Assembly (NCBI GenBank): GCA_964586735.1
Contig: CAZPIN010000089.1
Span: 1,200 to 65,199 of the forward strand
Length of the DNA stretch: 64,000 nucleotides
Origin: an uncultured Rhodobacterales bacterium
GTDB lineage: Bacteria > Pseudomonadota > Alphaproteobacteria > Rhodobacterales > CAZPXZ01
Reading direction: 5' to 3'
This document shows positions 8,258 to 50,253 of this stretch, piece after piece. How positions within the stretch are numbered: the first letter of the stretch is position 1; every line of letters begins with the position of its first letter. The translations under genes were made by a program, and so were the position numbers. The notes below the pieces were generated by a model. That model was not told the DNA's origin. It did no database searches and saw only the letters and a program-made list of their open reading frames with translations.

Positions 8258-8360
8258 GGACCCGCCTCCGGAAGTGTACAGGCGGCGCGCGTCTTGGCGC
8301 AAGCCCAACCATCTGGCTCCAGGCTGCCATGCTCATCCGCGCCGATTTCTGAATACACAC

Positions 8361-9194: not shown

Positions 9195-9303
9195 CAGCGA
9201 CCTCCGCAGCTAAGCCCTTGAGTCGCGCACAATACCTCCGGCGGGTGCGTCAAGGCAGAGTTCGCCGCGAAACGATGTCCGGCGAGGCAACGCGACGGTC
9301 TGT

Positions 9304-26678: not shown

Positions 26679-27605
26679 CTAGGACAGCAGGCTGCGCAGC
26701 AGAATCGCCTTTTGAATGTGGAGGCGGTTTTCCGCCTGGTCGAGGACTCGCGACTGACTGCCATCGATCACATCTGCCGCCACTTCTTGGCCACGGTAGG
26801 CCGGCATGCAGTGCAGGAAGATGGCGCCCGAAGCGGCGCGGGCCATTAGCTCTGCATCCACCTGGTATGCCCGAAACACCTCCTCGCCGCTTTCGCCGCC
26901 ACTGTCCATCGACCGCCACGTGTCGGTCATCACGCAATCGGCGTCCTGCCCTGCATCAGCCGCAGTGCTGAATAGCTCGATGCTGGCACCCGCTTCCCGC
27001 GCCCGTTCCAGGTCCTTGGAGTCAGGGCCTTGCTCCGGGGGGCAGGCTATGGCGAGATCGAAGGAAAACTTCCCTGACGCTTCGATAAACGAGCGCAGTA
27101 CGTTGTTGCCGTCGCCGCACCAGGCAAGCCGCTTCCCATCGATACCGCCGCAGTGCTCTTCAATAGTCAGAAGGTCTCCCAGCACCTGGCAGGGATGGGT
27201 ACGATCAGTCAGACCATTGATCACTGGTACGCTGGCCGCCTCGGCGAGCTCTTTCATTCTGGCATGGTGCCCCGTACGAATCATCACCGCGTCCACCATG
27301 CGCGAAAGCACTCGGGCGGTGTCGCCAATCTCCTCACCCCGCTGGAGATGCGTCTCCTGCGCGCTGAGCAAAAGAGTCGTGCCTCCGAGCTGGCGCATGG
27401 CTATGTCGAAGGAAACCCGGGTGCGCAGCGAAGGCCGCTCGAAGAGCATCGCCAGGATGCGCCCCTCGAGGCATGGATCTGGGTCGCGTTGGCCAGCGAA
27501 AAAACCGGCCCGGTCCCGCTTGCGGGCGCGGGCCACATCCAGCAGATCGCGCAGGCTGTCCGCGGCGACGCTGGCGATGTCGAGAAAGTGTACGGGCATC
27601 GTCAT
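26679..27605 (-). CDS. argF: Ornithine carbamoyltransferase
   Basis: SLRTR, HPCQ and DGNNV motifs, 308 aa. The start overlaps the argD stop by 4 nt. Confidence 0.9.
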
Positions 27606-28783
27606 GCTGCCTCCGCGGCGAGCTCCGCAAATACCTTGTCAAGGATATCCACAGCACTGCCAAGGTCGTCGTCCGTAGCGATGAGCGGGGGGAGAATTCG
27701 CAGTGTGTCTTCCGCCGCAGCCACTGCCAGCAGGCGATGGTTCGCGGCGCGTTTCACGACATCGCCCACCGGCACCTTACAGCGCAGTCCCAGCATCAGT
27801 CCCTCGCCGCGCAGCTCGGCAACCACGCCGGGGTAGGCGTCAACCAGCGCCGCCAAACGCTGCTGCAGACCGCCGGAGACGCGGCGTACGCGTTCCAGAA
27901 AACCCTCATCCAGAACCACGTCCAGCACGGCGTTGCCGACCGCCATCGCAAGAGGATTGCCGCCAAACGTAGAGCCATGGGTGCCGGCGGTCATGCCAGC
28001 GGCGGCGCGCTCCGTTGCAAGGCAGGCGCCCAGCGGAAAGCCGCCGCCGATTCCCTTGGCGATTGTCATGATGTCGGGAACGACGCCGGACCACTCGTGG
28101 GCGAACAGCTTGCCGGTGCGCCCCATCCCGCACTGCACCTCGTCGAACAGCAGAAGCAGTCCGTGCCTGTCGCATAGATCGCGAATGGCGCGCAGCGTGG
28201 AGTCGGAAAACTTGCGGATGCCACCCTCGCCCTGAATGGGCTCCAGCAGCACCCCCGCAGTTTCGGGGCTGATGGCCTCCTCCACTGCCGCGGCACTGTC
28301 GAAGGCCACCACGTCGAAACCGTCGAGCATCGGCCCGAAGCCGTCCACCAGCTTGGGCTTGCCGGCGGCTGCGATGGTGGCAAGCGTGCGGCCGTGGAAA
28401 GCGCCGTCCATGGTGACCAAGCGGAAGCGCTCTGGGGCGCCGGACTGGCTGTGGTAGCGGCGGGCCATCTTGATGGCGGCCTCCACCGCCTCGGCACCCG
28501 AGTTGCTAAAGAACACCGTATCGGCAAAGGTGGTCTCGACCAGCCGTCTGGCCAACCGCTCCTGGCCGGGAATGCGGTAGAGGTTGGAGGTATGCCAGAG
28601 CCTGCCAGCCTGCTCCGTCAGTGCCTCGATGAGGCGGGGATGGGAATGGCCCAGCAGCGAAACGGCGATACCGGCCCCGAAGTCGAGGTACCGCTCACCG
28701 TCTTCGTCGAAAAGCCAGGAGCCCTCGCCCCTGATGAATGCGAAAGGAGTGCGCTGGTAGGTTGGCAGGACAGGATCGATCAT
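27602..28783 (-). CDS. argD: Acetylornithine aminotransferase (class III PLP aminotransferase)
   Basis: [35 protein letters not shown] and the PLP-lysine context [14 protein letters not shown]. Directly upstream of argF. Confidence 0.9.
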
Positions 28784-28912: not shown

Positions 28913-28997
28913 TGGTGCCCGCTGCCGGACTCGAACCGGCACTCCCTAAGGAAACGGATTTTAAGTCCGTCGCGTCTGCCTGTTCCGCCAAGCGGGC
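28913..28997 (-). tRNA. tRNA-Leu (anticodon UAA), CCA encoded
   Basis: The minus strand reads GCCCGCT TG GCGG...ACGGA CTTAAAA TCCGT + long variable arm (TCCTTAGGGA) + GCCGG TTCGAGT CCGGC + AGCGGGC ACCA. It has a perfect 7-bp acceptor stem, a 5-bp anticodon stem, a T-loop TTCGAGT and anticodon TAA. Confidence 0.9.
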
Positions 28998-29236: not shown

Positions 29237-30607
29237 TCAAGCAACGCCAGTTACCGTAATGTCAGAATCGAAGAGCACAATCCCGCTGTCGCTTCGGTAG
29301 GTCGCCGTGTATGCCGCGTATCCAAATTCATCAGAGCCTGCTGCGCGGACTACACCGCCTCCGACTATGTCAATAGCGTCGTTGTTTTCGCCTTCAAACC
29401 TGATGGCGATTCCCTCCTCTTCCAGGCCGCCCTGCAAGATCAGGATCTGCTTAGCGGTGAGAGAAAGCGTTGTGCTGGCGGAGCCCTCTAGCGAGACTTC
29501 ATCGATTCCTTTGACAACTCTCGCAACACGGTCTGTCAGGGTGTATGAACTGGTGCCCTCGTCGCTGTCGACATCCAGCGCCATCCGATCAAACACAAGA
29601 TCCGGATCGCTATCCTCGTCCCCATCGTATGCCGTCGCCCCCGGCTCGCTGCCCGCTGTGCCGCCGAGATCGAATTTGGCAGCAATTCCATGCTCATACT
29701 CGTCGAGTGGAAAGGAAAATTCTATATCTGAGGTACCGTCAGCGTCGGTGTCCATTTCCACATCGATTCGGTTTCGAGTATTAAATGAATGAATGCTCCA
29801 GATATGCCTTTCGTTCACTTCAGCAAAGTCCTCCGGGGCATGGTCAATCTCCACGACCACATTCTCGTCTTGGAAAACGAAAGTTGCCTCGTCTCCTGCG
29901 TTCCTGTATGCTGTGACAAGAAAAAGCAGCCCCTGTATCCGGAATTGCTGAAAATCCTTCACGCTGTCCTTGCCAACCGCTTCCATGAGTTCGTTTCTGG
30001 CCAAGGGTCCATAGATGGTTTCGTAGGCATCCAAGGTGTTTCTGGCATCTTCCGCATTTGCCGTCTCGGCGCCGCGCATGCCCTCAATTGACCTGAGCAA
30101 TGAGAGTTCGGCGCCCGCTTTCTCCTCCTCGTCATCACCGAAAAGGAACACCGCTCCCGCCACCAGTATAGCCAGTCCGCCCAGAATGACCCAAGCCGAA
30201 CCCGGCTCGCCGCCCCCCGACGTCCTATTCTGGGCCAGTACCGACTCGATGTCGACAGGGGCGGCTCCGAACATCTCTTCCAGCCGTCCCAGCGCCATTC
30301 GCTCGACGTAGACAATTTCTCCATCGGCGGAGACGTGGATGGCGGACACTTCGCCTGACAAACCGCCCTGCAAGAGCAGCACAGGTTCTTCTTCTTTCGA
30401 GCGGGAGAAATACCCCTCCAGCACAAGCTCGCTTCCGTCCAGCAGCACGACTGCCAAATCGTCGCCCTCGCGGCACGTCAGCGCTACATCATCCCAGTAC
30501 GCTGGCAGAATCACCCCCTGGACGCCTTCGGGCGCCTGCGTTCGCGAACGGCCGTCCCCCGCTGCCGCCTTGGCATGAACACTCCCACAGTCCATCATTC
30601 CCTCCAT
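29237..30607 (-). CDS. Polyacidic family member C (one ~285-aa module)
   Basis: 456 aa. N cassette: CREGDDLAVVLLDGSELVLEGYF...ALGRLEEMFG. Hydrophobic helix: WVILGGLAILVAGAVFLFG. One helical + DxDxDG + C-cassette module follows. Ends GIVLFDSDITVTGVA. The start could be one of the ATGs at 30607-30595. Confidence 0.8.
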   Translation of the reverse strand: MEGMMDCGSVHAKAAAGDGRSRTQAPEGVQGVILPAYWDDVALTCREGDDLAVVLLDGSELVLEGYFSRSKEEEPVLLLQGGLSGEVSAIHVSADGEIVYVERMALGRLEEMFGAAPVDIESVLAQNRTSGGGEPGSAWVILGGLAILVAGAVFLFGDDEEEKAGAELSLLRSIEGMRGAETANAEDARNTLDAYETIYGPLARNELMEAVGKDSVKDFQQFRIQGLLFLVTAYRNAGDEATFVFQDENVVVEIDHAPEDFAEVNERHIWSIHSFNTRNRIDVEMDTDADGTSDIEFSFPLDEYEHGIAAKFDLGGTAGSEPGATAYDGDEDSDPDLVFDRMALDVDSDEGTSSYTLTDRVARVVKGIDEVSLEGSASTTLSLTAKQILILQGGLEEEGIAIRFEGENNDAIDIVGGGVVRAAGSDEFGYAAYTATYRSDSGIVLFDSDITVTGVA

Positions 30608-30744
30608 TGGGCGCGCGCGTCCCGGAAACTCCTTAAGTACATCTGCACTGGAGATATGGTGTCCCCGTGCAGTCGCACTGTCAAACGTATGTCGCCCTCG
30701 CGGTCCAGTACCTGCCGTCGAATGACCATCACCCGCTCGGAGGG

Positions 30745-33700
30745 CTAAATGGTTATGTCCGGGTCTACGTAAATCGTACCGTCTGTCCCCTCATAGATGA
30801 TGAGACCTCGGTCATCCATATCAGCGCCCGCTGTGCCGTCGATGTCTACGGCCTCAATGCCGATGCCGGGCGTAAAGATGGAGCCGCTGGGCCCCCTCAG
30901 GACAAGTTCGTAGTCCTGGTCCGGCGAGCCGTCGCCGTTGCCATCCGCAAGCAGCGTAAGCTGGGCGTCGGTGATTGCTAGTGTCGTCCCCGACGTTGAG
31001 TCGCCGTCCATCTGAATATCCCGTATCCCAGCGAGAAACCTTGCCTGCTCGTCGGTTAGCGTCAGCTGGAGCTCTTCGCTCAGCGACATGCTATCAATCA
31101 CGAGGTTGCCGGGGGCAATTGGGCTTCCATCAGTTAGCGTCACATCGTTGACGCCGTTACCGCTCCAGTCCATCTTCAGCTCCAGCTGCGGGCCGGTTTG
31201 ACCGGGCAGGGAAACGAAGAGCGTCTGGTCCGTCGTGGTATCCGCGTCCTGGTCCACTGCAATCTCGATGATGCCCTGGCCATCGGCATCGAGCGTCCAT
31301 GTGTGAATGGCTTCCACCGTACCATCGTCTTCGCGATCAAGCCTGAAAACCACCACGTTGAGATCCGGCGTACCATCGTCATCCATGTCGACGCCAAATG
31401 TCGGCTCCTTGCCCTGATACTCGGACTGCAGGTAGGTGTTGACCAGAGGCACCATCCCCTGGATTGCGGCGAGATGGGCAGGCTCCAGCGCGTCCGGACT
31501 CTCACGCAGGCTGGCCATGGCTTCCGCGCCATACAGCGCACCGTACGATTCCAGCAGCCAGCCGGCGTTGCGCTGATTGGCGCCCTGCACCGCCGCCTGG
31601 CGCAGCACCGCCATCTCCCGCCAAGCCCCTTCGCCAATGGCAAGCGTAACGTCCCTGTCCAGAAGCAGCGTTGCGCCCATCAGCGAAAACGCGCGATGCG
31701 TCGTTGTGTCCTGGCTGGTATCGGGGGATATGGAAAGGGCGGGCAATGCCAGCACATCGCCAATGTCGGCCTCTACGGTAAGCGTGTAGCCATGATCCAC
31801 GCTCCCGTCGCGGTCACCGTCAGCCAGCAGCGACAGCGTCTCGGGCGAGATGGAGATATCCGTGACTCCGTTCGTCGCCATCTGCACCTCCTTGATCCCG
31901 CCCAGCAGCCTCGCGTGGTCTGTGGCAAGCACAACCGTCTGGTTTCCCGTGAACTCGATGCGATCAATTACCAGATCAGCGCTTCCCCAGTCGCCTCCAC
32001 CATCGATCACTGCCGTTTCCGCCGTACCGTCTCCATCGAAATCCACCTGCCCCCGAAGCGCTGTCCCGTCCTGATCAGCAATCACAAGAACAACAACCGC
32101 ATCCACCGTGTCGTCGGCGTTGTTGTCAACGCTCAGCTCGAGCGCTCCCTCGACGTCCCCGCTAAGCGACCAGTGATGTACCGCATCAGTGGAGCCGTCG
32201 TCATCGGCGTCAAGGTCCAGCGTAACCCGGTCTTGCCGCTCCGTCAGGGCTAGATTGTACCCCGAGGTCAGATAGGCGCCGTACAGGCGGGCTAGTCCCT
32301 GCAGCCCCGCAAGTTGCTCCGCCTCCGCGCTGCTCGGATCTTCCCGCAGACCATCGATTATCTCCGTGCCAAACAGAACCCCGTAGGCCATCAGCACCTG
32401 CTCGGCTGTCTTCACGGCAGCCTGCTGGGAGCTGCCCGGAGGGGCAACGTCAATGGACAGCTGCCGCAGCAGCGAAAGGTCCCGCCACGCGCCTTCGCCG
32501 ATGCCAAAAGTTATGTCCTTGTCCACCTCAATCGTCACGCCCGGCACCGAGTAGGCGCGGTATGTTTCTCTGTCCTGACGGGGCAGTCGCTCCAATGTAC
32601 CGTCGCTGACCAGTACAATGTCGGAGCTGTCACCATTGATTCTCAGCGTGTAGCCGTCTTCCTGTCCCGATCCCAGTGCTTCCAGCTGCGGCACGGTAAT
32701 GGAAATTTCGGTTACCCCGTTGTCGGCGAGGGAAACCTCCCTCACACCAGCCAAATACGCCGCGTCCACGTCGCGAACCTCAATCGCGTCGTCCATGTCG
32801 AACACCAGCCGGTCAAAACTGATGCCGTCGCCGTACAGGGTAGCGTCGCCCGTACCGTCCCGCTCGAAATCCACCTCCGCCACAATTATCGCCGCCGTCT
32901 GCTGCGCTGGCTCCAAGAGAAACACCGCGTCGATGGTTTCCGACGCTTCGACATCGACATTCACCGCCAGCAGTTTTTCTTCGGCGCCGCCCGGCATCCA
33001 GGTGTGGGTCACGTCCGCCGAGCCATCGCCGGTCAGGTCAAGGCCGAGCACCACCTCGCCATCCCCGTAGGTGATCCGGTCCTCAGTCACGGTCTGCTCC
33101 CCCAACGCGTTTTGGGAGTTTAGGTAGGCATTGACGATATTCAGCAGACCCTGAATCTGAGCCTTGGCCTCGTCGTCGACCTCTTCGGGATTCCCCGTGA
33201 GCGCCGCCAGCGCCTCCTCTCCGAACACCGTCTCGAAGGACTTAACGGCAATTTCCGCGCTTGTTTCGTCAGCCCCCTCTAGCCCCAGGTCCTGGACGAT
33301 CTGCTGCTCACGTGGAAGGCCGCCGCCGCCGTCGTCGCCGCCGCCGAAAACGCTCGTGCGCTCGTAAAGGTAGCCGATGATCAGGACGATGAGGCCCAGC
33401 TCCTGGTCAGACAGGCCCAACCAATCGGCGATGAACGGCATGTCGCCACTGGAGTGGCTTTCGCGTCTGGCAAACATTTCGTCCAGCCGCCCCAAGGCCA
33501 CGGGTTCGCCATCGGCTATCGCGCTATCGGCTGACGGCAACGCCGTCTCCGGCCAGTCTCCGGCGCTGACTGCTACCGCGCAGGCATCTGCCCCAGCATC
33601 CAGCGAAACCAGATTGGCAAAGCAGCCGACGACCCGCAGCTGCCTTCCGTCGACCAGCACAACCACAAGGTCATTGCCCTCGCGAAACACCCCCTCCACC

Positions 33701-33807
33701 TCATGGCGACGGCCAGGAGGCAGATATCTCCAGACGCTTTCGTCCAAGACATTCTGGCCGCGGGCGGCGACGGCAGCCATCGTCGGGGGATCGTCTTGGA
33801 AGACCAT
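30745..33807 (-). CDS. Polyacidic family member D (three tandem ~285-aa modules)
   Basis: The track ORF begins at TTG 33930, which is the TTG of a TTGACA box, so I prefer ATG 33807 (MVFQDDPP...). N cassette: FREGNDLVVVLVDGRQLRVVGCF...ALGRLDEMF. Helix: LGLIVLIIGYLY. Three modules are delimited by GIGEGAWR[DE][LM].[LV]LRQ at ~32500 and ~31640. Ends GTIYVDPDITI. Confidence 0.8.
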   Translation of the reverse strand: MVFQDDPPTMAAVAARGQNVLDESVWRYLPPGRRHEVEGVFREGNDLVVVLVDGRQLRVVGCFANLVSLDAGADACAVAVSAGDWPETALPSADSAIADGEPVALGRLDEMFARRESHSSGDMPFIADWLGLSDQELGLIVLIIGYLYERTSVFGGGDDGGGGLPREQQIVQDLGLEGADETSAEIAVKSFETVFGEEALAALTGNPEEVDDEAKAQIQGLLNIVNAYLNSQNALGEQTVTEDRITYGDGEVVLGLDLTGDGSADVTHTWMPGGAEEKLLAVNVDVEASETIDAVFLLEPAQQTAAIIVAEVDFERDGTGDATLYGDGISFDRLVFDMDDAIEVRDVDAAYLAGVREVSLADNGVTEISITVPQLEALGSGQEDGYTLRINGDSSDIVLVSDGTLERLPRQDRETYRAYSVPGVTIEVDKDITFGIGEGAWRDLSLLRQLSIDVAPPGSSQQAAVKTAEQVLMAYGVLFGTEIIDGLREDPSSAEAEQLAGLQGLARLYGAYLTSGYNLALTERQDRVTLDLDADDDGSTDAVHHWSLSGDVEGALELSVDNNADDTVDAVVVLVIADQDGTALRGQVDFDGDGTAETAVIDGGGDWGSADLVIDRIEFTGNQTVVLATDHARLLGGIKEVQMATNGVTDISISPETLSLLADGDRDGSVDHGYTLTVEADIGDVLALPALSISPDTSQDTTTHRAFSLMGATLLLDRDVTLAIGEGAWREMAVLRQAAVQGANQRNAGWLLESYGALYGAEAMASLRESPDALEPAHLAAIQGMVPLVNTYLQSEYQGKEPTFGVDMDDDGTPDLNVVVFRLDREDDGTVEAIHTWTLDADGQGIIEIAVDQDADTTTDQTLFVSLPGQTGPQLELKMDWSGNGVNDVTLTDGSPIAPGNLVIDSMSLSEELQLTLTDEQARFLAGIRDIQMDGDSTSGTTLAITDAQLTLLADGNGDGSPDQDYELVLRGPSGSIFTPGIGIEAVDIDGTAGADMDDRGLIIYEGTDGTIYVDPDITI

Positions 33808-34340
33808 GGAGAGCGCTCTCGAAACGGCGTACAGACCAACCGCCCCGGCGGTGCCGCTTGCCAGCGGCTCCGGGATGCTGCGGCGCAGTCCATCACACCG
33901 GAGTCTTGGAGCTATCGGGCGGAATGTCAAATCCGCGATTTCTGGCGCACCTTGCGACCCAGTCCGTCACTGCCGCGGCTTGGCACACGCCCGCAGGACG
34001 CTGGTGCAGGAGTCCATCCGCACAGCACTCCCATGCTCCACGCTCCATGACGGCGAGCGGCGCGAAGCAGACACGGCTCCCAAGGTCGAAGCGGCGCGCC
34101 GTCTCGCGGCAGCAAGACGCGGCGGCGGCAGGCCTCCGCGGTACAGGGAGCTCAGGACGGAAGGCTCCGCCTGGGCGGCTGTGCTGCCTGGCGCCTGCCC
34201 GCACGCGTCCGTCACGATGGCTTGTCCCGACGGGCCTGCGGAGTCTGAAACTGGCGTCCGCAAGCCTCTCCGGCGCCGGACTGCAGCTGGCCGCCCCTAT
34301 CCACGCCTTCGTGCCCGGCACTTCGCGGGGCGTGCTGCCG

Positions 34341-36500
34341 TCAAGCTACAGCTATCTCCGGGTCTACGTAGAACGTAACCACCACCGCCGCGCTGTCGCT
34401 GGGGTCAACAACTTCAAAGGGCGTGAACGTCTCGCCATCGATCATCACGTCAGCACCAGCCTCAACGCCCTCGATGGCGACGCTGTCGTTGCCGTCTCCG
34501 TAGATTTTGATCCCGTGGCCCGGTTCGCCTGCCGCGCTCTCCGCCCACTCGAGCAGGCTTTCCAGCGAGATCGTGATGCTCGTTGCCTCCTCGTGCAGCG
34601 TGATGCTCTCAAGCTCGCCCAAGTCGAAGATTTCCCCCAGATTCAACGAAGACGACGGGAGCGAGTCCATGTTGTATGTCCCCCCAGCCAAAATCTCGGC
34701 CGACACCAAATCGTAGTTGCCGTCACCATCGTCTTCGCTGTATTCGCCGATGTATCTGACATCATACGCGCCATCGGCGTCGAAGTCGATACTTGCCGAT
34801 ATCTGGCGGAACCCGAGCATGCGGCTAAAGTCCAGCTCATACCTTTTCTCGGGCACCAGCTGGGACGGGAACTGGTCGCTGTCTCCAGTGGCGACTGCAA
34901 ACTCCGCCCTGTTGTTCGCCAGATTGTCGAAGCTCCACTCCTCATAATGCCATTCATCCGCGTCCCCCAGAGCCGCGAAGCCAATCTGGTCCACGCCCTT
35001 TATCTCGTTGGTCACAGTGTTGATTTCCAACTCTGTGTTGCGCAGGGCGTAATTGTAGTGCAAGAGGGAAACGATGCCCTGCACCTGAAGCAGGGTCAGG
35101 TTCTGTCCTCCGTTTCCCGCCTCCTTCGCGATAGCCAGCACATCCAGCAAATCCTGCAGGATCGCGTTCGACGGGGCGCTTAGGTCGTCTACGTCGACGC
35201 CCGCCGTGCGAAAGTCATTCCAGATGGCGCTTCCGGCGTTGATTCTCGCCATCGCCGCCACTTGCGCGGGGTTGTTCGGGTCAATGAACTCCATTCTGCT
35301 GACCGTGCCGTCGTCGTTGTCGGACACCGCCACACTGTCCGCCCTTCCGTCGCCGTCGGTGTCGCGCTCGATGCGGTCGACGGTGCCGTTCGCGTCGCCA
35401 GTGCCGTCACCATCGATATCAGCCCTGACCGCCAGCTCGTTCTCGTCGCGGTAATGGTACTGGTGCTCCTCGTCGTGGGTGCCGTTGTCCTCGGTCCCAC
35501 CGAAGAACCTGGCTCCGACGGGTCTGTAGCCGTTCCCCGTATCGAAACTTGCTGTCTGGTCGGCTGTGCCATCGCCATCGGTATCGACGCCAAAGTCCAG
35601 CGAATCATGGTCGTCGTCCGTGTTGCGCGGGCTGCCCAGCGACCGCGCGGCTGGGCCGGCTGGGGCAGTCGGATCAAAGTCGACGGACACGACCCGAGCG
35701 TAGCCCTGGTCTACGTTCACCGTAGAGGCTCTTTCCACCGCGTAGGCGATCCTCTCCACCTCGGTACTGCTGAGACTCTGGCCACCGCCAAGCTCCGCCA
35801 CCGTGTCCATCAGATTGTGCAGCAGGTTTTCCCTGTCGGCGGCGCTGGCTCCTGCTGCCACCTCGACGCCGAAGCGTCCCCAGTCATCGAGACTGGCGCT
35901 GCCGCTGTTGATCCTGCCCAGCGCGGCTGCGTCCGGGTTGCTGCCGTCGCGGTCGCTGTCGCTGCTTGAAGTCAGCGCTACGGCCGCCAGGGTAATCGTG
36001 CCTCCGACGAGCAGCGGTCCAATGAGTGCCGAGCTGCTCTCCTGCAGCGCTTGTACACCAGGCTCCAGCAGGGGCTCCTCAGCGAAATCGCCATCGACGC
36101 TGAACATCTCGTCGAGACGCCCAAGCGCTGTTGGCTGCGCGGCGGCGGCCATGCCGTCGGCGTTTACATCCAGAACGGCCATCTGCCCATCCGGTCCCTC
36201 GGTGGTGAGCAGCACGGGACGATCCGCTATGGGAATGGGAAGTGGGGTGGACGTGAGCGGGATATCGTCACCGTCGGAGCCATCCGCCATCGAGAAGCCC
36301 GCAAAGTACCCCTCGACAAGCAGCAGCCGTCCGTCGGCCACTTCGACCACAAGGTCGTCTCCCTGGCGGAAAGTGCGAATCACCTCCGCCCGCGAAATGG
36401 GAAGGTGAACCTCCCTGGTCTCGATGGAAACGGCGAAGCGCTCATGCACGGCGAACTCTGCGTTGGGCCGGGCGAGCGTACTGCATCCGATGGCGCTCAT
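34341..36500 (-). CDS. Polyacidic family member E (two modules)
   Basis: 719 aa. N cassette: FRQGDDLVVEVADGRLLLVEGYF...ALGRLDEMF. Helix: LIGPLLVGGTITLAAVALT. Two helical segments of the type ARINAGSA.W.DF...GV.V, each followed by DxDxDG loops. Ends VVVTFYVDPEIAVA. Confidence 0.8.
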   Translation of the reverse strand: MSAIGCSTLARPNAEFAVHERFAVSIETREVHLPISRAEVIRTFRQGDDLVVEVADGRLLLVEGYFAGFSMADGSDGDDIPLTSTPLPIPIADRPVLLTTEGPDGQMAVLDVNADGMAAAAQPTALGRLDEMFSVDGDFAEEPLLEPGVQALQESSSALIGPLLVGGTITLAAVALTSSSDSDRDGSNPDAAALGRINSGSASLDDWGRFGVEVAAGASAADRENLLHNLMDTVAELGGGQSLSSTEVERIAYAVERASTVNVDQGYARVVSVDFDPTAPAGPAARSLGSPRNTDDDHDSLDFGVDTDGDGTADQTASFDTGNGYRPVGARFFGGTEDNGTHDEEHQYHYRDENELAVRADIDGDGTGDANGTVDRIERDTDGDGRADSVAVSDNDDGTVSRMEFIDPNNPAQVAAMARINAGSAIWNDFRTAGVDVDDLSAPSNAILQDLLDVLAIAKEAGNGGQNLTLLQVQGIVSLLHYNYALRNTELEINTVTNEIKGVDQIGFAALGDADEWHYEEWSFDNLANNRAEFAVATGDSDQFPSQLVPEKRYELDFSRMLGFRQISASIDFDADGAYDVRYIGEYSEDDGDGNYDLVSAEILAGGTYNMDSLPSSSLNLGEIFDLGELESITLHEEATSITISLESLLEWAESAAGEPGHGIKIYGDGNDSVAIEGVEAGADVMIDGETFTPFEVVDPSDSAAVVVTFYVDPEIAVA

Positions 36501-36700: not shown

Positions 36701-37549
36701 CTAGTCCTTGATGCGGAAGCCGATGCGAAGCAGCCAGTAGGTGGTGGCCCACAGCGCCGCACCCAGTGCAAGGGACACCGCCAGCCCAATGCGGGGGTCG
36801 GCATCCGAGACCCCCAGCACGCCGTATCGGAATCCGTCGATGAGGTAGAAGAACGGATTGAACCGCGAGACAGTTTCCCATGGCTCGGGCAGGTAGCGAA
36901 TCGAGTAGAAGGTGCCCGACAGAAACGACAGCGGGACAATCAGGAAATTGGTGACCGTCGCCATATGGTCGAATTTCTCCGCCCACATGCCAGTGAGGAT
37001 ACCCACCGAGGCAAGCAGGCTGGAAGCCGCCAGCACGAAGTACATGGCCCAAAACGGATTGGCTACGGTCAGCCCGAACAGCGGAAAGAGCACTGCGGAA
37101 ATGGCCGCCGCCACCAGCGCGCCGCGTATGATTCCCCCCATCGCATAGCCGAGGTTGAGCTCCCCCGGCGACAGAGGCGCAACAAGGGTGTCGTACAAGC
37201 TGCCGAGAATCTTGGCGTGAAGGATCGAGGAGCCGGTGTTCTGGAAGGCGTTCTGGATCACGGCCATCATCACGATTCCCGGGACCAGAAAGGAGAGAAA
37301 CGGCACGTCGCCGATCTCGGGACGGCCCGAGGCGAAGGCGAAAGTGAAGACAGTTACGAACAGCAGCGACGTGAACACCGGAGCCAGCACGGTCTGCTGC
37401 CAGATCTTCGCGAAGCGCAGCACCTCCCGCGCGACCAGGGTCCAGAGTCCCAGCCAGTTGACGCGCCCGAACCGGCGGCGGCTGACCGGCGGCGGCAGCA
37501 TGGTGTTCCCGAGCATTTCTGACACTCCCTCTAGCGGTGGCACAAGCAT
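36701..37549 (-). CDS. ABC-2-type transporter permease (NodJ/YadH-like), no cognate ATPase adjacent
   Basis: 282 aa with six predicted TM stretches and an ABC-2-like N-terminus (WLGLWTLVAREVLRFAKIWQQTVLAPV). The upstream neighbour is divergent gcrA, so no ATPase gene is contiguous. Confidence 0.75.
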   Translation of the reverse strand: MLVPPLEGVSEMLGNTMLPPPVSRRRFGRVNWLGLWTLVAREVLRFAKIWQQTVLAPVFTSLLFVTVFTFAFASGRPEIGDVPFLSFLVPGIVMMAVIQNAFQNTGSSILHAKILGSLYDTLVAPLSPGELNLGYAMGGIIRGALVAAAISAVLFPLFGLTVANPFWAMYFVLAASSLLASVGILTGMWAEKFDHMATVTNFLIVPLSFLSGTFYSIRYLPEPWETVSRFNPFFYLIDGFRYGVLGVSDADPRIGLAVSLALGAALWATTYWLLRIGFRIKD

Positions 37550-37642: not shown

Positions 37643-39043
37643 ATGTCCGGATACGAATGGACCTTCAAGAGCGTATCTCTGCTCAAGAAAATGCATGCCA
37701 AAGGCGCCGCCGCATCCGCCATTGCCAAGGCGATTGGCGGGAACATCTCGCGGAACGCCGTCATCGGCAAGATCCACAGGCTGGGGCTCTCCATGCCCAA
37801 AGCACAGCAGGAGAAACCGAAGGACGACTCCGGGAAGAAGGGAGACCCGTCTGCCAAGGTCGCATCTGCCACGTCCAAGAGGACAGTGCCTGCGACGCCG
37901 CTGAGTGCCTATGTCAAAGCCAAGGTCAAGGCCAAGGCCAAAACCGCGGCTGAAGGCAGCGGCGCGAAGGCCGAGTCCGGAAAGCCGACCGCCGCCAGAA
38001 AGAACCGCCCGGCAAGCGACGCGGCCGCTGCGAAGCAGACCGTCAAGCCAACCGCAGCCAAGACTCCCATCGCCAGCTTGAAACCGCCCGCGGCCAAGCA
38101 ATCCAACACCAAGCCATCCGCAGCCAAGCCCGCCAGCGCCAAGCCACCCGCAGCCAAACCTGCCAGCGCCAAGAAGCCGCTTGCCAAGAGCGCACTCAAG
38201 ATCGACCCCAAGACGGCAAAGCCATCCGCAAAGCCCGCAGCCCCTGCGGCCAAGGCAGCCACCAGCCCCAAGGCAAAAGCAGCAGACAAGGCCGATGCCA
38301 AACCAGCGGCCATGGCCAAGGCCGCCGCGGCAAAGCCGACCGAAATCACTAAGGCGCCCGCCGCTGCGAAAGCACCTGTCAAGAAGGCCAAGACTGTCGC
38401 AGCCACCAAAACATCGCCTGAGAAAAAAAACCTGGCGATGCCAACACCCGCTACCAGCGGCAAGACCGCTGCCAAGCGAAAGCCCTTGGCGGTGCCGGCG
38501 CCCGCCGCGAAAGCACCCGCAAAGATGGCAAAGGCTGCCGCAGCCGCATCAGCCAGGAAGTCGGCTGGAGCAAAAAAGGCAGCCAGAACACCGACTGGGA
38601 AAAAGCCGCTGGCAATGCCAACCGTCGCCGCCAGTGGCAAAACCGCAGCCAAAGGGAAACCCCGGGCGATGCCGGCGCCTGTTGCCAGCGGCAGAAAGCC
38701 CGTCAAGGCTAAGCCCGACGCGAAGTCAACCGCAGTCGCCGCGAGAAGCAGCAATGCCCCGGCCAAGCCGGCAGCCTCCGCCAAACCGAAGTCCAAGGAA
38801 GCGCAGTCGACCGCAGCGGCGGCGAGCCGCGACAGCGCTCCCGACAAGCCGCCGATTCTGGTGTCTCTGGTAGATCTCACCGAGCGCATCTGTCGCTGGC
38901 CCTACGGCGACCCGAAAACTGACGACTTCGGCTTCTGCGGCCGCCCGGCCATGGCCGGCAAGCCGTACTGCGAACAGCACGCCGCAGCGGCGTTTCAGCC
39001 GCCTAGCGCGCGCAGAGAGCGCGGAAGAGTCCGCAACCGCTGA
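37643..39043 (+). CDS. gcrA: GcrA cell-cycle regulator with a ~300-aa Ala/Lys/Pro-rich insertion
   Basis: GcrA N-terminal DNA-binding domain: WTFKSVSLLKKMHAKGAAASAIAKAIGGNISRNAVIGKIHRLGL. C-terminal domain: LVDLTERICRWPYGDPKTDDFGFCGRPAMAGKPYCEQH. A long AKP-rich repeat linker separates the two domains. Confidence 0.85.
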   Translation: MSGYEWTFKSVSLLKKMHAKGAAASAIAKAIGGNISRNAVIGKIHRLGLSMPKAQQEKPKDDSGKKGDPSAKVASATSKRTVPATPLSAYVKAKVKAKAKTAAEGSGAKAESGKPTAARKNRPASDAAAAKQTVKPTAAKTPIASLKPPAAKQSNTKPSAAKPASAKPPAAKPASAKKPLAKSALKIDPKTAKPSAKPAAPAAKAATSPKAKAADKADAKPAAMAKAAAAKPTEITKAPAAAKAPVKKAKTVAATKTSPEKKNLAMPTPATSGKTAAKRKPLAVPAPAAKAPAKMAKAAAAASARKSAGAKKAARTPTGKKPLAMPTVAASGKTAAKGKPRAMPAPVASGRKPVKAKPDAKSTAVAARSSNAPAKPAASAKPKSKEAQSTAAAASRDSAPDKPPILVSLVDLTERICRWPYGDPKTDDFGFCGRPAMAGKPYCEQHAAAAFQPPSARRERGRVRNR

Positions 39044-41091: not shown

Positions 41092-43233
41092 CTATTCACG
41101 CTCCCTAGACCACTTTCTTGCAAGGCTGTTCTTTAATTTCAAAACGGTGTTTGTCGCTTCTGCCCACCCATCTGTGCCGTATGTCACCAGTACATCCGCC
41201 GCATCCTGACTCAATTGATAGCACGCATGCGGACTATTCACCGGGCGATCTGGTTGATCGGGGTTGTACAACGCAATACCTGCCTCGACAAATTGATGCA
41301 TGGTTTGCCTTCTAAATGTTTCTCTGGTGTTTGGGGCATAATTTCGCCCGTACATCTCTAAAGCAAACTTCATAATTGGCGTAATTCCAATCAAAGGAAG
41401 TGAAATTTCGCTCCACGATCCATCCGGCTTTAGATCTGCCAGTGCCAGCAAAGTGAGAGCCGATCTCTCATTCTGCTGGGCCCGCGGCAAACCGAGGGAT
41501 CTCAGTATTTCTGTTGCTTGCTCGACTTTTTTCTGTGCAAGCAATGGGTTTTCATCCCCGAAGAGCTCAGCCATTTTTTCCTCCAGGATTTGATCCACGG
41601 TACGTTGTGAGAATACAGAATCTTCGAACTTCCTTCCCATTGAAAGCAGGGCTTCCTTCTCCGGGTAGCGCAGCGCTCGAAGATCTGTTGCATTCACCTG
41701 TGTATGCCCATTGAACTGACGAAAGTATCTGTCAACCAAGCTGCTGTTGAGGAATGCGCATATTCCATGCGCAAGCCGTTTCTGCATTCCTCGCTGATTG
41801 ACGTGAAATACGTTGAGGTGGTTCTCGAACCCAACAAGATCGCCTGGCAGCCCGGAATCATACACGCTTGCAACGATTCTCCGTCGGTCTTCCTTTGCGG
41901 AGAGTCTTCGAACCACAACGTAATATCCCTTATTTTTCCACAGCCACTTTCTGCTGCTGTTCGTTACCGTTATGGCGTTTGGCTTTTTCATATCCTTGGG
42001 CCATTCCAGCCGGCATAATGGAAAGTGCGCCGGATAGAGCAGAGGAGCAGACGACCGGCATGGACGCTTGCGCAATTGCCCCTTGTGCCGATATTCCACT
42101 ATTGGCCCCGTGGACACTTCAACGCCCAGATCTCCAAGCGACACCGGAAGAAGCGCCATTCGGCCCGCGACCACTTCGTCAATTTTGTTGGTCAGAATGT
42201 TGATAAACTTGTTTGGATCGGCCGGGCGCACAATCTTCTCATATGGCAACGCCTGCATTGTTTCCGCCTGTATACTGCACGTCAATGCACCCGTCTCTTT
42301 AGCGTGCTCGGCAATTCCGCCTGCAGACACGAACACGGTCTTTACGCCCGCACCCTTTACAGCGTGAACAATCACATTCTCCTGAAGCACTCCATAATCC
42401 CGAAACGCCGTGTTGCGCTGATCAAATACATGTATTTGCCGAATGGACATCATTGACAGAAACTGCTGCCTGAATGACCTGAAGTACGGGCCATTACAGA
42501 AAGAGCGGGGTACGATAGCCACAAGCTCGCCGCCAGACTCCAGTTTCATGGCGGCAAGATGCATAAAGCCGGTATACAAATTTGTCGCATCTATGCCCAA
42601 AGCCGCCAGCGCTTGCCGATGCGCCGATGATGAATGAATCTTCTTGTACGGAGGATTCATAATAACATGGGTGAAGCACTCATCATGCCGCGCATTGGCG
42701 CAAAGATACTCAGACTGGCACAGAATAAAATCCTGCTCGCGAACGTCAAAGCGCGCTTCAATGCGTGAATCCGTGCATTGCTGCATGGCGTCCTGAAGCA
42801 CGCGCTGAAGATAGTTGATCATAAGGTGCTCAATTTCATAGCAGGTTAGATCGACTGAACATGGCTTCGGGGCTCCGTTGCAGATTCTCTCAACAAAAGC
42901 GGCGGAAAGCGATCCGACGCCTGCGCCGGGGTCCAAGACACGAACTTCGCCATCGACCCTGTCAAACATACTGGCCAGGAATCGCGCAAGCGGAGCCGCC
43001 GTAAGAAATTGCCCAAGCTCCGCCTTTCGCTTCTGGTCGACTCGACAGGAAGCGTCGGCGCGATAGTAGTCTACCATCTCAATGGGAGCGACGGTCTGCA
43101 TGATGTGTCTAGCCTCGAACATAACCCTTCGAGACAGTGTCGCGCTTTGCTCTGCCGCGGCAGCGCGCAAACGACGGAACACGCCAAAGAGGTCATTACA
43201 GGCGCATAGTACAGTGTCCCCTGTCGATGTCAA
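41092..43233 (-). CDS. N6-adenine DNA methyltransferase (Eco57I/PstI-methylase-like) fused to the N-terminal domain of a BsuBI/PstI-family endonuclease
   Basis: SAM motif VLDPGAGVGSL and catalytic VIMNPPYKK. The C-terminal ~190 aa (ILRSLGLPRAQQNERSALTLLALADL...ITPIMKFALEMYGRNYAPNTRETFRRQTMHQFVEAG) look like the endonuclease N-domain. Terminates at a TAG at 41092-41094. The start is uncertain (43233, or ATGs ~110-130 nt downstream). Confidence 0.8.
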   Translation of the reverse strand: MTSTGDTVLCACNDLFGVFRRLRAAAAEQSATLSRRVMFEARHIMQTVAPIEMVDYYRADASCRVDQKRKAELGQFLTAAPLARFLASMFDRVDGEVRVLDPGAGVGSLSAAFVERICNGAPKPCSVDLTCYEIEHLMINYLQRVLQDAMQQCTDSRIEARFDVREQDFILCQSEYLCANARHDECFTHVIMNPPYKKIHSSSAHRQALAALGIDATNLYTGFMHLAAMKLESGGELVAIVPRSFCNGPYFRSFRQQFLSMMSIRQIHVFDQRNTAFRDYGVLQENVIVHAVKGAGVKTVFVSAGGIAEHAKETGALTCSIQAETMQALPYEKIVRPADPNKFINILTNKIDEVVAGRMALLPVSLGDLGVEVSTGPIVEYRHKGQLRKRPCRSSAPLLYPAHFPLCRLEWPKDMKKPNAITVTNSSRKWLWKNKGYYVVVRRLSAKEDRRRIVASVYDSGLPGDLVGFENHLNVFHVNQRGMQKRLAHGICAFLNSSLVDRYFRQFNGHTQVNATDLRALRYPEKEALLSMGRKFEDSVFSQRTVDQILEEKMAELFGDENPLLAQKKVEQATEILRSLGLPRAQQNERSALTLLALADLKPDGSWSEISLPLIGITPIMKFALEMYGRNYAPNTRETFRRQTMHQFVEAGIALYNPDQPDRPVNSPHACYQLSQDAADVLVTYGTDGWAEATNTVLKLKNSLARKWSRERE

Positions 43234-47859: not shown

Positions 47860-48684
47860 ATGGACCTGATACTCACTCCGGACACCGCGCCGAATCCGGC
47901 GGACGGGGCGGGCCGGGAGGAAGCGCCCGCCGTCAAGATGGCCGCCCGCGGCGTCTCGGTGCGCTACGGAAGGAAGGTCGGCATCGCCAACGTCACCACC
48001 GATATTTGCGAGCGCAGCGTCACCGCCTTCATCGGCCCGTCGGGATGCGGCAAGACCACCTTCCTGCGGTGCCTCAACCGCATGAACGACCCCATCCCCG
48101 GCTGCCGCGTCGACGGCCAGGTGCTGCTCGACGGCGTCGACATTTACGGCGCGGAGGTCGACCCGGTGCTGGTGCGAGCGCGGGTGGGGATGGTGTTCCA
48201 GAAGCCCAACCCATTTCCCAAGTCGATCTACGAGAACGTCGCCTACGGGCCGCGCATCCACGGCCTTGCGGCGGACCACGCCGACCTGGACGGCATCGTC
48301 GAGAAGTCGCTGCGCCGGGCCTCGCTATGGGACGAGGTCAAGGACCGGCTGCGGGACCCCGCCACCGGCCTGTCGGGCGGCCAGCAGCAGCGGCTGTGCA
48401 TCGCCCGCGCCATCGCCACCTCGCCGGAGGTGCTGCTGATGGACGAACCGTGCTCGGCACTGGATCCGGTGGCGACGGCGCGCATCGAGGACCTGATCGC
48501 CGAGATCCGCCGCAAGTACGCCATCGTCATCGTGACCCACTCCATGCAGCAGGCGGCGCGGGTGTCGCAGCAGGCGGCGTTTTTCCATCTGGGATCGCTG
48601 GTCGAGCAGGGCGAGACGGGGAGGATGTTCACCAACCCCTCCGACCCGCGCACGCTCGACTACATCACGGGCCGGGTCGGCTGA
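47860..48684 (+). CDS. pstB: Phosphate ABC transporter ATP-binding protein
   Basis: Walker [10 protein letters not shown], signature [14 protein letters not shown] and Walker [22 protein letters not shown]. Confidence 0.95.
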
Positions 48685-48710
48685 GCGCCGCCCCCGCCAG
48701 GGAGACATCC

Positions 48711-49454
48711 ATGGCCGCAGGAAGCGACCTCAACCCGCACATCGTCTCGGGCTTCGACGACGACCTGCGCGCGCTGACCCGCCAGGTGCTGGAGATGGGC
48801 AGCCTCGCCGAGCACCAGCTGAAGACGGCGCTGGACGCGCTGCAGCAGCGCGACCCGGCCCTCGCCGAGAGCGTTGTGAAGGCGGACGCGCGAATCGACG
48901 CGGCCGAGGTCGAGCTGGAGGAGAAGGCCATCCAGACCCTGGTGCTGCGCCAGCCGCTGGCCCTGGACCTGCGCGAGACCATCGCCGCCCTCAAGACGGC
49001 GTCGACGCTGGAGCGAATCGGCGACCTGGCCAAGAGCGTCGCCCGCTGCGTGCCGGCCATCGCCGCCCGCCCGCCGGTGCGCCTGGCGCGGCCGCTGGTG
49101 CAGATGGGCCACGACGCGCGGAGGCTGTTTGGCGACGTCCTCGACGCCTACGGCACCCGCGACGCCGAGAAGGCGGTGGAGGTGTGGAACCGCGACATCC
49201 AGATTGACGAAACCTACAACAGCCTGTTCCGCGAGATCACTACGTACATGATGGAAGACCCGCGCACCATCGGCAGCTGCGCCCTGCTCATGGCGATCGC
49301 CAAGAACCTCGAGCGCGTCGGCGACCACGCCACCTTCGTCGCCGAAATGACGTACTTTATCGTCGAGGGCGAGCGTCTCGGCGACGACCGGCCGAAGGGA
49401 CAGCCGGCCGGCCTGTTTCTGGACCCAGCCAACGGCAGAAGCGCGGACGCGTAG
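48711..49454 (+). CDS. phoU: Phosphate signalling complex protein PhoU
   Basis: ATG at 48711. Two PhoU repeats with E/D-x-x-x-D motifs (ADARIDAAEVELEE..., IQIDETYNSLFREI..., NLERVGDHATFVAE). Confidence 0.9.
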   Translation: MAAGSDLNPHIVSGFDDDLRALTRQVLEMGSLAEHQLKTALDALQQRDPALAESVVKADARIDAAEVELEEKAIQTLVLRQPLALDLRETIAALKTASTLERIGDLAKSVARCVPAIAARPPVRLARPLVQMGHDARRLFGDVLDAYGTRDAEKAVEVWNRDIQIDETYNSLFREITTYMMEDPRTIGSCALLMAIAKNLERVGDHATFVAEMTYFIVEGERLGDDRPKGQPAGLFLDPANGRSADA

Positions 49455-49481
49455 GAAGCGGCAGAACGGCGGGAGGCGAGC

Positions 49482-50183
49482 ATGCCCGAAGACGTGCGAA
49501 TACTGGTGGCGGAGGACGATTCGGCGCTGGCCGAGCTGCTGCGCTTCAACCTGGAGCACGAGGGCTACGAGACGGTCCTCTGCGCCGACGGCGAGGAAGC
49601 GGCCAGGATGCTGCGCGACTCCCCTCCACGCCTGGCGATACTGGACTGGATGCTGCCGGCCCGGTCGGGGCTGAAACTGTGCCGCGACATACGGGCCAAT
49701 CCGGTGACAGCGGGTATGCCAGTGATGATCCTGACCGCCCGCACCACGGTGGAGGACAGGCTGCGGGGTTTCGACGCGGGTGCCGACGACTACCTGGGCA
49801 AGCCGTTCGAGATGGCGGAACTCGTGTCGCGGGTGAAGGCGCTGCTGAGGCGGGCCGAGGGCTATCCGGCTGGAACGCAGATGGAGGTGGGAGCGGTCAC
49901 GCTCGACCCGGTGCGGCGGCGGGTGCGCAGCGGAGAACGGACCGTGCCTCTGGGGCCGAAGGAGTACGGCATCCTGGAGTGCCTGATGCGCGAGCCGGGC
50001 CGGGTGTACTCGCGGGAGGAGCTGCTCGACGCGGTGTGGGGACCGGACTCGTACGTCGACCCCAGAACGGTGGACGTCAATGTCAACCGCCTGCGGCAGG
50101 CGCTGGTGAAAGGCGGAGGAGGTGGACTGATACGCACCGTGCGGCTGGGCGGCTATGCCATCGATGACCTTGACGCCGGCTAG
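49482..50183 (+). CDS. phoB: Phosphate-regulon response regulator (OmpR family)
   Basis: Receiver domain (ILVAEDD...ILDWMLP...ILTARTT) plus winged-helix domain (LGPKEYGILECLMREPGRVYSREELLDAVWG...RTVDVNVNRLRQAL). Last gene of the pst-pho operon. Confidence 0.9.
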   Translation: MPEDVRILVAEDDSALAELLRFNLEHEGYETVLCADGEEAARMLRDSPPRLAILDWMLPARSGLKLCRDIRANPVTAGMPVMILTARTTVEDRLRGFDAGADDYLGKPFEMAELVSRVKALLRRAEGYPAGTQMEVGAVTLDPVRRRVRSGERTVPLGPKEYGILECLMREPGRVYSREELLDAVWGPDSYVDPRTVDVNVNRLRQALVKGGGGGLIRTVRLGGYAIDDLDAG

Positions 50184-50253
50184 CTTGGCGGTCTCCACTG
50201 AATCCAGATGGACCGTCGAAGAAGCGTGCGCTTCGATGTACATGACTCGGGGC

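Follow-up and report, generated by a model that had tools for sequence, protein, structure and literature searches.

Three tandem paralogs with stable module numbers inserted between argD and gcrA in an uncultured Rhodobacterales bacterium: candidate type I-exported surface proteins

Introduction

Do adjacent paralogs that differ in the number of a repeated module constitute a locus in which module number is still changing, or have their architectures long been fixed? The question is raised by three genes, here called C, D and E, which lie between argD and gcrA in a stretch of 64,000 nucleotides from an uncultured Rhodobacterales bacterium (the window in the following). An earlier note on this DNA had proposed unequal recombination, both inside the adjacent genes and from one to another, as the cause of changes in module number, by which length variants of one surface component would be produced. 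The explanation which we favour, with moderate confidence, is that of old, inserted and fixed paralogs with stable module counts, whose products would be exported by a type I secretion system (T1SS) and held at the cell surface.

Organization of the block

As described in the earlier note, C, D and E are co-oriented paralogs which lie in tandem and contain repeated homologous modules; a tRNA-Leu gene, its 5' end facing C, lies beside them, and an integrase is absent from the block. The features of the locus are the following, where H-B-Ccas denotes a module of helical segment, beta region and C-cassette.

26679-27605: argF (Pfam OTCace)
27602..28783, minus strand: argD, class-III aminotransferase (Pfam Aminotran_3, 5e-113), conserved flank of the block
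28913-28997, minus strand: tRNA-Leu(UAA) (ARAGORN; Rfam 58.4 bits), 5' end toward C
29237..30607, minus strand: gene C, 456 aa (452 aa in the database gene call, start 30595); N cassette, hydrophobic segment at aa 138-156 and one H-B-Ccas module
29240-30115, minus strand: C module, aa 165-456, matched end to end by the module HMM
30745..33930, minus strand: gene D, 1061 aa (1020 aa from the probable start, ATG 33807); N cassette, weak hydrophobic segment and three H-B-Ccas modules
30748..31641, minus strand: D module 3, aa 764-1061, terminating in the family C-terminal motif ...GTIYVDPDITI
31642..32505, minus strand: D module 2, aa 476-763, starting at the conserved junction GIGEGAWRDL
32506..33345, minus strand: D module 1, aa 196-475 (HMM iE 5e-106)
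34341..36500, minus strand: gene E, 719 aa; N cassette, hydrophobic segment at aa 158-176, then one module that is truncated and one that is complete but diverged
34344-35276, minus strand: complete diverged module of E, aa 409-719 (profile-profile comparison)
35277-35945, minus strand: truncated module of E, aa 186-408, helical and Asp-rich part, C-cassette absent
36701..37549, minus strand: ABC-2 type permease gene (Pfam ABC2_membrane, 3.9e-32), between E and gcrA
37643..39043, plus strand: gcrA (Pfam GcrA, 7.4e-28), divergent from the block, conserved flank

C and D are separated by 137 nt, and D and E by 410 nt or 533 nt, depending on whether D begins at its TTG or at its ATG start, the latter being favoured by the database gene call and by an orthologue. 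The permease gene separates E from gcrA, so that the block does not adjoin gcrA directly, as had been assumed. At 466 aa, the gcrA product is of unusual length. In the block, scans for promoters and terminators gave background levels, and the tRNA was the sole match of an Rfam scan of the whole window, in which an open reading frame at 48660-50333 on the minus strand was also inspected and judged to be a spurious antisense frame. The GC content of the block had been called host-like, which roughly holds: its GC of 0.59-0.64 and GC3 of 0.73-0.76 are like those of argD, argF and gcrA, although not like those of the core genes at 16-23 kb of the window, whose GC3 of 0.86-0.89 is higher.

The three genes are old paralogs and belong to a small, clade-restricted family, of which six members are found in this 64-kb window, the other three at 56-6307, 50402-54244 and 55557-63173.

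Architecture of the modules

The modules of C (a single copy) and D (three copies) comprise about 290 aa each, and the module HMM matches every one of them end to end. According to sub-HMMs and an AF2 model (pLDDT 73.7; helical, then beta, then alpha/beta), each consists of a helical segment, followed by an Asp-rich beta region and a C-cassette. Amino acid identity amounts to 29-34% among the D modules (E 1e-23 to 1e-44) and to 24-29% between C and D modules, with E values of 1e-10 to 1e-44 over all comparisons, and the inter-module junction of D is strongly conserved, with D-x-D-I/V-T-F/L on its one side and G-x-G-E-G-x-W on the other. In profile-profile comparison, aa 409-719 of E correspond to the complete module in diverged form (prob 96.9%, E 2e-10), and aa 186-408 align to module positions 4-206 only. 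The series of one, three and two modules that had been read from the sequence is thus approximate, because only one of the two E copies is complete, in diverged form, and the other is truncated and has no C-cassette; the counts for C and D stand, and the two full copies in E do not. The same applies to the proposed composition of a module from a helical segment, DxDxDG loops and a C-cassette-like domain, which is found in C and D but not in the first E copy.

No Pfam or NCBIfam model covers the ~290-aa module, for which a solved-structure relative was not detected, and no curated model of either collection covers the C-cassette. When the AF2 model of the module was compared with the PDB by Foldseek, no match at E<=0.001 was obtained and no Ig-like structure was matched; at the sequence level, neither D nor a profile of the C-cassette gave a significant PDB match.

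Insertion into a conserved neighbourhood

Among 80 alphaproteobacterial loci retrieved with ArgD (whose counterparts there are 58-67% identical to it), gcrA stands divergent from argD in 60, at a median distance of 410 nt from start to start (range 253-1235). Here the distance is 8,860 nt, which bears out the view that the block is an insertion into a conserved neighbourhood, and homologues of C, D or E were found at none of the 80 loci. In six distant genomes, a homologue of the ABC-2 permease is encoded directly upstream of argD, and we regard the permease gene as the ancestral neighbour of argD, which marks the other edge of the insertion. A functional link between this permease and the family was considered and rejected, since the permease adjoins argD in genomes without the family. 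The tRNA-Leu gene is counted as inserted content; it is absent from the argD-gcrA interval in all 30 loci scanned for tRNAs (a subset of the 80 ArgD loci) and present after C in the related genomes L082, L083 and L084. The block, comprising C, D, E and the tRNA-Leu gene, entered between the permease gene and argD. Elsewhere in the window there is no partial duplicate of the tRNA, and repeats of tRNA fragments are not longer than 11 nt.

Stability of module number across lineages

L081, which is an independent assembly of this organism, matches the present sequence with 100% identity along 8,090 nt. In L082, with 75% DNA identity, D with three modules, C with one module and tRNA-Leu follow each other in this order, and L083 and L084 show the order gcrA, ABC-2 permease, D (three modules), C (one module) and tRNA-Leu. 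The same counts before the same tRNA are largely what the earlier note had expected to see in relatives if the arrangement were ancient and stable. The family proteins evolve faster than their neighbours, with 39% amino acid identity of D in L083/L084 as compared to 78% for the permease. Orthologues of D in L082 (67%) and P0005 (39%) both have three modules; those of C are P0002 (58%) and P0008 (32%). Each D module is nearest to the same-position module of the other lineages (69% and 42%, the identities also found between module 1 and module 1 of two orthologues), and the grouping of the modules across lineages follows their position and not the protein to which they belong. The E orthologue of L084, the one relative that shows E, is 40% identical and colinear, keeps the architecture and is located at a different position. 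Among the lineages compared, it is the position of E that is seen to vary and not the number of modules. On sequence grounds, this comparison shows module counts fixed at one in C and three in D since the lineages split, and an insertion which predates that split and goes back to an ancestor shared by at least three sampled lineages. The triple module of D arose by internal duplication before the three lineages separated, and its modules afterwards diverged independently to about 30% identity.

It is very improbable that the three genes form a recombination-prone array, in which unequal homologous recombination is now making module-number variants of a surface protein. Such an array would be tandem, co-oriented and homologous in its modules, as this one is, and would fit the fast evolution of D relative to the permease in L084, and the triple module of D must once have come from duplication; against it stand the identical counts in three lineages, the position-specific orthology and the unchanged sequence of L081. 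The modules are homologous at the protein level, but their DNA shows 42-51% identity and a longest shared exact word of at most 14 nt, and repeat finders detected neither long DNA repeats nor tandem repeats. RecA-dependent recombination needs about 20-30 bp of identity. Because of this low DNA identity and the shortness of the exact words, no substrate for homologous recombination is left, and the change of module number by unequal recombination that had been proposed is not borne out. Equally little credence can be given to a genomic island of recent acquisition with the tRNA-Leu gene as its integration site, for which the broken gcrA-argD neighbourhood, the adjoining tRNA gene and a GC3 below that of the most GC-rich core genes of the window might be cited. 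Genes for an integrase or other mobility functions are missing from the block, as is a direct repeat of any tRNA segment, it lies on the 5' and not the 3' side of a tRNA that is itself missing from the interval in the 30 distant relatives scanned, its GC is like that of argD, argF and gcrA, and plasmid (tblastn) and phage (megablast) searches gave no match. Furthermore, the arrangement is old rather than recent, because it is common to lineages with just 39% identity between their D proteins.

The N cassette and the hydrophobic segment

The N cassette common to C, D and E reads R-E/Q-G-D/N-D-L-V-V...D-G...G-Y/C-F, followed by A-L-G-R-L-E/D-E-M-F, and is likely to be remotely homologous to the BapA prefix-like domain (PF22783 / NF033677), of which the proteins are not formal members: none of the six window members reaches a curated cutoff. 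In all six, and likewise in relatives, BapA_N is matched at the same positions of the profile (E 6e-6 to 0.06), with scores of 21.7 bits for C, 13.5 for D and 19.7 for E (cutoff 27); for NF033677 the scores are 23.3, 20.2 and 24.7 bits (cutoff 35). Remote homology appears likely because a distant family member, P0027, passes both cutoffs (50.3 and 56.2 bits) while the window members fall below. The N-terminus of Blp2 weakly matches aa 39-163 of C. AF2 models the N cassette as a beta-rich structure (pLDDT 64.2), for which a Foldseek comparison with the PDB gave no match at E<=0.001, the highest-probability matches being beta-roll regions of T1SS lipases (prob 0.57-0.77, not significant). A retention-module fold is therefore unconfirmed, neither the module nor the N-cassette model having a significant PDB match.

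Behind the N cassette follows a hydrophobic segment, which is clear in C and E (19-aa Kyte-Doolittle, KD, 2.1-2.5) but weak in D (KD 1.4) and likewise in P0005. A 19-residue hydrophobic window of KD 2.1-2.6 occurs at the conserved position of aa ~130-160 in C, E, F, G, P0002 and P0003, and might just as well serve as a true transmembrane anchor. The equivalent segment of P0027 is a Gly/Ala-rich linker with a TAAG site, which is typical of LapG-processed adhesins; no conserved copy of the LapG di-alanine site ([TAP]AA[GV]) follows the N cassette in C, D or E.

Export and surface retention

Type I secretion, with retention at the cell surface, is the probable fate of C, D and E. Their N-termini are not signal-peptide-like, and their composition is marked by a net charge of -59 to -132, 0.6-1.8% Lys, <=0.4% Cys and about 21% Asp plus Gly. 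T1SS substrates are acidic and carry a non-cleaved C-terminal signal (PMC8277102). The extreme C-terminal motif ...G-x-x-G-h-h-h-D-P-D-I/V-T/A-V is conserved in most of the 29 family matches, and the C-cassette aligns with the C-terminal ~100 aa of P0031 and P0017, which in both come directly after true RTX repeats, with G-I-x-E-I/V-x-L, T-L-x-L-T, x-V-x-G-D-x-x-D and Y-x-x-Y...L-L-V-D-x-D-I-T as common features; P0031 matches the SMc04171-family Ca-binding repeat model. C, D and E themselves contain no strict RTX nonapeptide (GGxGxDxUx), no HemolysinCabind match and no Big, Cadherin or other Ig-like Pfam match at E<=0.1, and genes for a T1SS ABC transporter, membrane-fusion protein, TolC or LapG/LapD are absent from the 64-kb window.

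Without a signal peptide, the proteins would leave the cell C-terminus first via a T1SS encoded elsewhere in the genome, with the C-cassette as a putative uncleaved secretion domain. Outside the cell, the Asp-rich DxDxDG loops may bind Ca2+ and drive folding, thereby substituting for RTX nonapeptides, and the N cassette together with the Gly/Ala/Val-rich hydrophobic segment may plug or tether the protein at the envelope. The outcome would be a cell-surface component in length variants of one, about 1.5 and three modules, which would be fixed paralogs rather than switching alleles; that C, D and E act as one surface component is plausible.

Alternatively, though this is unlikely, the three products are bitopic inner-membrane proteins with a cytoplasmic N cassette, a signal-anchor helix and acidic Ca2+-binding modules in the periplasm, and have no need of a T1SS. 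The conserved hydrophobic window would suit such a topology, as would the acidic cluster behind it, which is consistent with the positive-inside rule, and the absence of RTX repeats and of T1SS genes nearby. The weak segment of D and P0005 and the linker with its TAAG site in P0027 do not, and a strictly C-terminal motif with homology to a post-RTX domain is hard to square with a periplasmic domain; composition, moreover, is typical of a T1SS substrate. Type I export at the surface remains our preferred reading, within which we attach little weight to a more specific version: an undescribed class of type I cargo whose duplicated unit includes the secretion domain, present three times in D, and whose DxDxDG loops replace the beta-roll, the internal copies serving as sequential Ca2+-dependent folding and ratchet units or being processed at the junction into C-like single-module proteins.

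Distribution and significance of the family

The family is rare, with 29 matches among 1.84 billion representative proteins. Word-indexed homologue searches with C and D recovered the queries themselves, one 58% orthologue and one weak match, and the same type of search with the N-cassette alignment gave no match; no relatives turned up on JGI metagenome contigs, which were scanned first with D and afterwards with the N-cassette alignment. The locus is not one of length switching but a fixed paralog set, whose counts are kept across lineages in which D has diverged to 39% identity, and it belongs to a poorly known family, its module having neither a Pfam or NCBIfam model nor a detectable relative of solved structure. 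If the proteins are T1SS cargo, the design of RTX beta-roll and Ig-like extenders would be replaceable by another Ca2+-binding module with its own C-terminal domain, and C, D and E would be candidates for surface or adhesion components in an alphaproteobacterial lineage that is under-sampled.

Comparison with known systems

Unlike a tRNA-integrated genomic island, the block has no integrase and no tRNA-derived repeat, and lies on the 5' side of the tRNA gene. Contingency-type surface-protein arrays resemble it in their adjacent co-oriented paralogs with differing module number, but the repeats here are only ~30% identical as protein and 42-51% as DNA, and their copy number is kept across lineages.

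RTX adhesins minimally comprise an N-terminal retention module, tandem Ig-like extenders as well as a C-terminal beta-roll bearing the T1SS signal (bioRxiv 10.1101/2025.09.30.679566). In contrast to RTX/Bap-type adhesins such as LapA, MpIBP, BapA and Blp2, the three proteins have no RTX nonapeptide or beta-roll and no Ig-like or cadherin extender array, are short (452-1020 aa) and are built from a composite ~290-aa repeat unit (helical, beta, C-cassette); they also differ from the LapA type in having neither a conserved LapG di-alanine site nor an adjacent T1SS or lapD/lapG. They share with these adhesins an N-terminal BapA prefix-like similarity, which stays below threshold, the lack of a signal peptide, an acidic, Cys-poor and Asp/Gly-rich composition, repeated modules with Ca2+-type DxDxDG loops and a conserved, uncleaved-looking C-terminal domain. 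Small alphaproteobacterial-type RTX proteins such as P0031 differ in that their C-terminal domain is preceded by RTX repeats, which the C-cassette is not, and D has two extra internal C-cassettes, each at a module end; the C-terminal ~100 aa of these small proteins nevertheless align with the C-cassette of C, D and E.

Gene arrangement

The earlier note placed three tandem, co-oriented family members between tRNA-Leu/argD and gcrA. These paralogs, C, D and E, are real: three minus-strand genes lie within 29237-36500, separated by 137 nt (C-D) and by 410 or 533 nt (D-E), as reported. The flanks are also as described, except that an ABC-2 permease gene, which had gone unlisted, sits before gcrA.

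Genes of the locus and further family members in the window
26679-27605, minus, argF, flank on the C side
27602-28783, minus, argD, flank on the C side
28913-28997, minus, tRNA-Leu(UAA), C-side flank
29237-30607, minus, gene C, 456 aa (452 aa in the database gene call P0001)
30745-33930, minus, gene D; ATG at 33807 (1020 aa) favoured by gene call P0004 and the orthologue P0005
34341-36500, minus, gene E, 719 aa
36701-37549, minus, ABC-2 permease gene, E-side flank, followed by gcrA
37643-39043, plus, gcrA, divergent, 466 aa, with the histidine kinase gene next
41092-43233, minus, restriction-modification gene (fused Eco57I-type methylase and BsuBI/PstI HTH domain), convergent to the histidine kinase gene
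56-6307, plus, family member, 2083 aa, same N cassette and C-terminal cassette
50402-54244, plus, family member, 1280 aa, same two cassettes
55557-63173, plus, family member, 2538 aa, same two cassettes

In the larger members, DxDxDG-type loops form long arrays; successive loops are about 27 residues apart in the 2083-aa protein and about 13 apart in those of 1280 and 2538 aa. One of these members adjoins a dTDP-rhamnose/GT2/methyltransferase sugar cluster (7487-13374), and another comes after pstSCAB. The D-E intergenic region (33808-34340, 533 nt from D's ATG) is unusually GC-rich (GC 0.71), with no Rfam match and no detected repeat, and the permease gene has no adjoining ATPase gene. GcrA's N- and C-terminal Pfam parts lie about 350 aa apart, joined by an Ala/Lys/Pro-rich low-complexity linker, and the gcrA region shows a strongly positive AT skew. 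On L084, a contig of a more distant lineage, some 1.9 kb separates the two parts (3123-5023), and there are apparently two copies of the gcrA 5' region.

Module architecture

The N cassette, common to C, D, E and the three further window proteins, follows the pattern R-E/Q-G-D/N-D-L-V-V...D-G-R...G-Y-F, then A-L-G-R-L-E/D-E-M-F; its matches to a BapA prefix-like domain are consistent across members and sub-threshold. It is followed, at about aa 130-175, by a Gly/Ala/Val-rich hydrophobic segment, pronounced in C and E but weak in D. D then holds three modules (aa 196-475, 476-763 and 764-1061) of 29-34% mutual identity (E 1e-23 to 1e-44), and C a single one (aa 165-456; 24-29% identity to those of D). 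A module HMM matches each of these end to end, and sub-profiles resolve three parts in each, the first helical, the second an Asp-rich beta region bearing DxDxDG-type loops, and the last a C-cassette of about 110 aa, a split with which an AlphaFold model of the module agrees (helices 2-71, strands thereafter; pLDDT 73.7).

In E, profile-profile comparison identifies aa 409-719 as a complete, diverged module (probability 96.9%, E 2e-10), while aa 186-408 align to module positions 4-206 only, without the C-cassette; sub-profiles find one C-cassette, at aa 632-718. The series proposed as 1-3-2 therefore holds for C and D and is nearer 1, 3 and about 1.5, since E has one full module and one lacking its C-cassette.

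The D inter-module junctions (31630-31660 and 32495-32525) share the pattern D-x-D-I/V-T-F/L-G/A-I/V-G/S-E-G-x-W-R/Q/P-D/E-L/M and are conserved across lineages far above the remainder of D; they could serve as a hinge or processing site.

An old insertion beside argD

The insertion into a conserved neighbourhood is borne out by 80 alphaproteobacterial loci retrieved with ArgD (58-67% identical). In 60 of these, gcrA is divergent from argD and the two starts lie 253-1235 nt apart (median 410), against 8,860 nt in the window. None of the 80 loci holds a C/D/E homologue, and none of the 30 scanned for tRNAs has a tRNA-Leu in the gcrA-argD interval. Six of the 80, all from distant alphaproteobacterial genomes, have a permease homologue (46-50% identical) immediately upstream of argD, and in one (L033) it is placed between gcrA and argD. 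From these loci, the ancestral order is therefore gcrA | ABC-2 permease - argD - argF, and what was inserted is E-D-C-tRNA-Leu, at about 28.8-36.7 kb.

This block bears no sign of recent mobility: as had been noted, it contains no integrase and is 5' of the tRNA gene; its GC content resembles that of the flanking genes, and neither a tRNA-derived repeat nor plasmid or phage relatives were found.

Assemblies from other samples also carry the locus. The same organism in another sample (L081) is 100% identical over 8,090 nt, and a relative at 75% DNA identity (L082) retains the tRNA-Leu together with orthologues of C (58%) and of D (67% aa identity, with the same three modules). The more distant lineage of L083/L084 (identities: D 39%, C 32%, permease 78%, histidine kinase 61%) shows the order histidine kinase - gcrA - permease - D - C - tRNA-Leu, where D (P0005) has three modules and C (P0008) has one. 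The arrangement D(3)-C(1)-tRNA-Leu is thus kept in L082 and L083/L084. An identity matrix and a neighbour-joining tree both pair D modules by position across lineages (69% and 42%) and not within the protein (29-34%). The triplication is therefore older than the lineage split, and no concerted evolution has followed it. The independent Logan contigs L082 (4547-4628), L083 and L084 all have their 3' end at the identical base within tRNA-Leu, probably because tRNA sequence common to co-occurring strains broke the assembly there.

The proposal that module number changes by unequal recombination, producing length variants, is unsupported: C and D have the same module counts in these relatives, the outcome that the earlier note had named as refuting it; module DNA is 42-51% identical in codon-aligned comparison, and the longest shared exact word is at most 14 nt. 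Repeat finders reported no long repeats, and homologous unequal recombination is left with no substrate today. The locus is an old, stable paralog set.

E, by its position, is the variable element. In L084 its orthologue, 40% identical and colinear with an unchanged 1.5-module layout, is found past the histidine kinase gene and not between permease and D; the equivalent window slot holds the low-GC restriction-modification gene (GC 0.51-0.53, GC3 0.55), suggesting a hotspot for local rearrangement or acquisition.

Probable secretion and surface retention

C, D and E have no signal-peptide-like N-terminus; they are Lys-poor, nearly Cys-free and strongly acidic, with net charges of -59, -132 and -96. 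Type I secretion system (T1SS) cargo is typically acidic and carries a C-terminal signal that is not cleaved off (PMC8277102). A conserved end motif, G-x-x-G-h-h-h-D-P-D-I/V-T/A-V, lies a few residues from the stop codon and is common to most of the 29 family matches. In the distant relatives P0031 and P0017 the C-cassette aligns to the final ~100 residues, directly after bona fide RTX repeats (HemolysinCabind 63 and 80 bits), the position that a T1SS targeting domain takes. In the family member P0027, BapA_N scores above cutoff, and a TAAG site and a linker rich in Gly/Ala are also present; this would tie the N cassette and hydrophobic segment to the apparatus by which LapA-type adhesins are retained.

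Together, these features lead us to favour export by a T1SS and retention at the surface, in which DxDxDG loops would drive Ca2+-dependent folding in place of RTX repeats and the N cassette and hydrophobic segment would hold the protein at the surface, as in LapA-type adhesins. Counting against secretion, the 64-kb window contains no T1SS genes; C, D and E also have no RTX nonapeptides, Ig-like extenders or conserved LapG site, and no fold match was found for either AF2 model (module or N cassette). The main rival reading makes them bitopic inner-membrane proteins with periplasmic modules. C, D and E belong to a family of probable surface proteins.

Comparison with RTX adhesins

The family is rare and uncharacterised: no curated model covers the module, among 1.84 billion representative proteins only 29 match it, and no relatives were found in JGI metagenome contigs. 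Its design is unusual in that a C-terminal domain of secretion type recurs internally, with conserved GxGEGxW junctions between the copies. [quoted passage not shown] Unlike these, C, D and E have neither Ig-like extenders nor RTX nonapeptides, and where RTX adhesins have a retention module, their N cassette gives the sub-threshold BapA prefix-like matches. They ought not to be classed as RTX adhesins, though they may well work like them.
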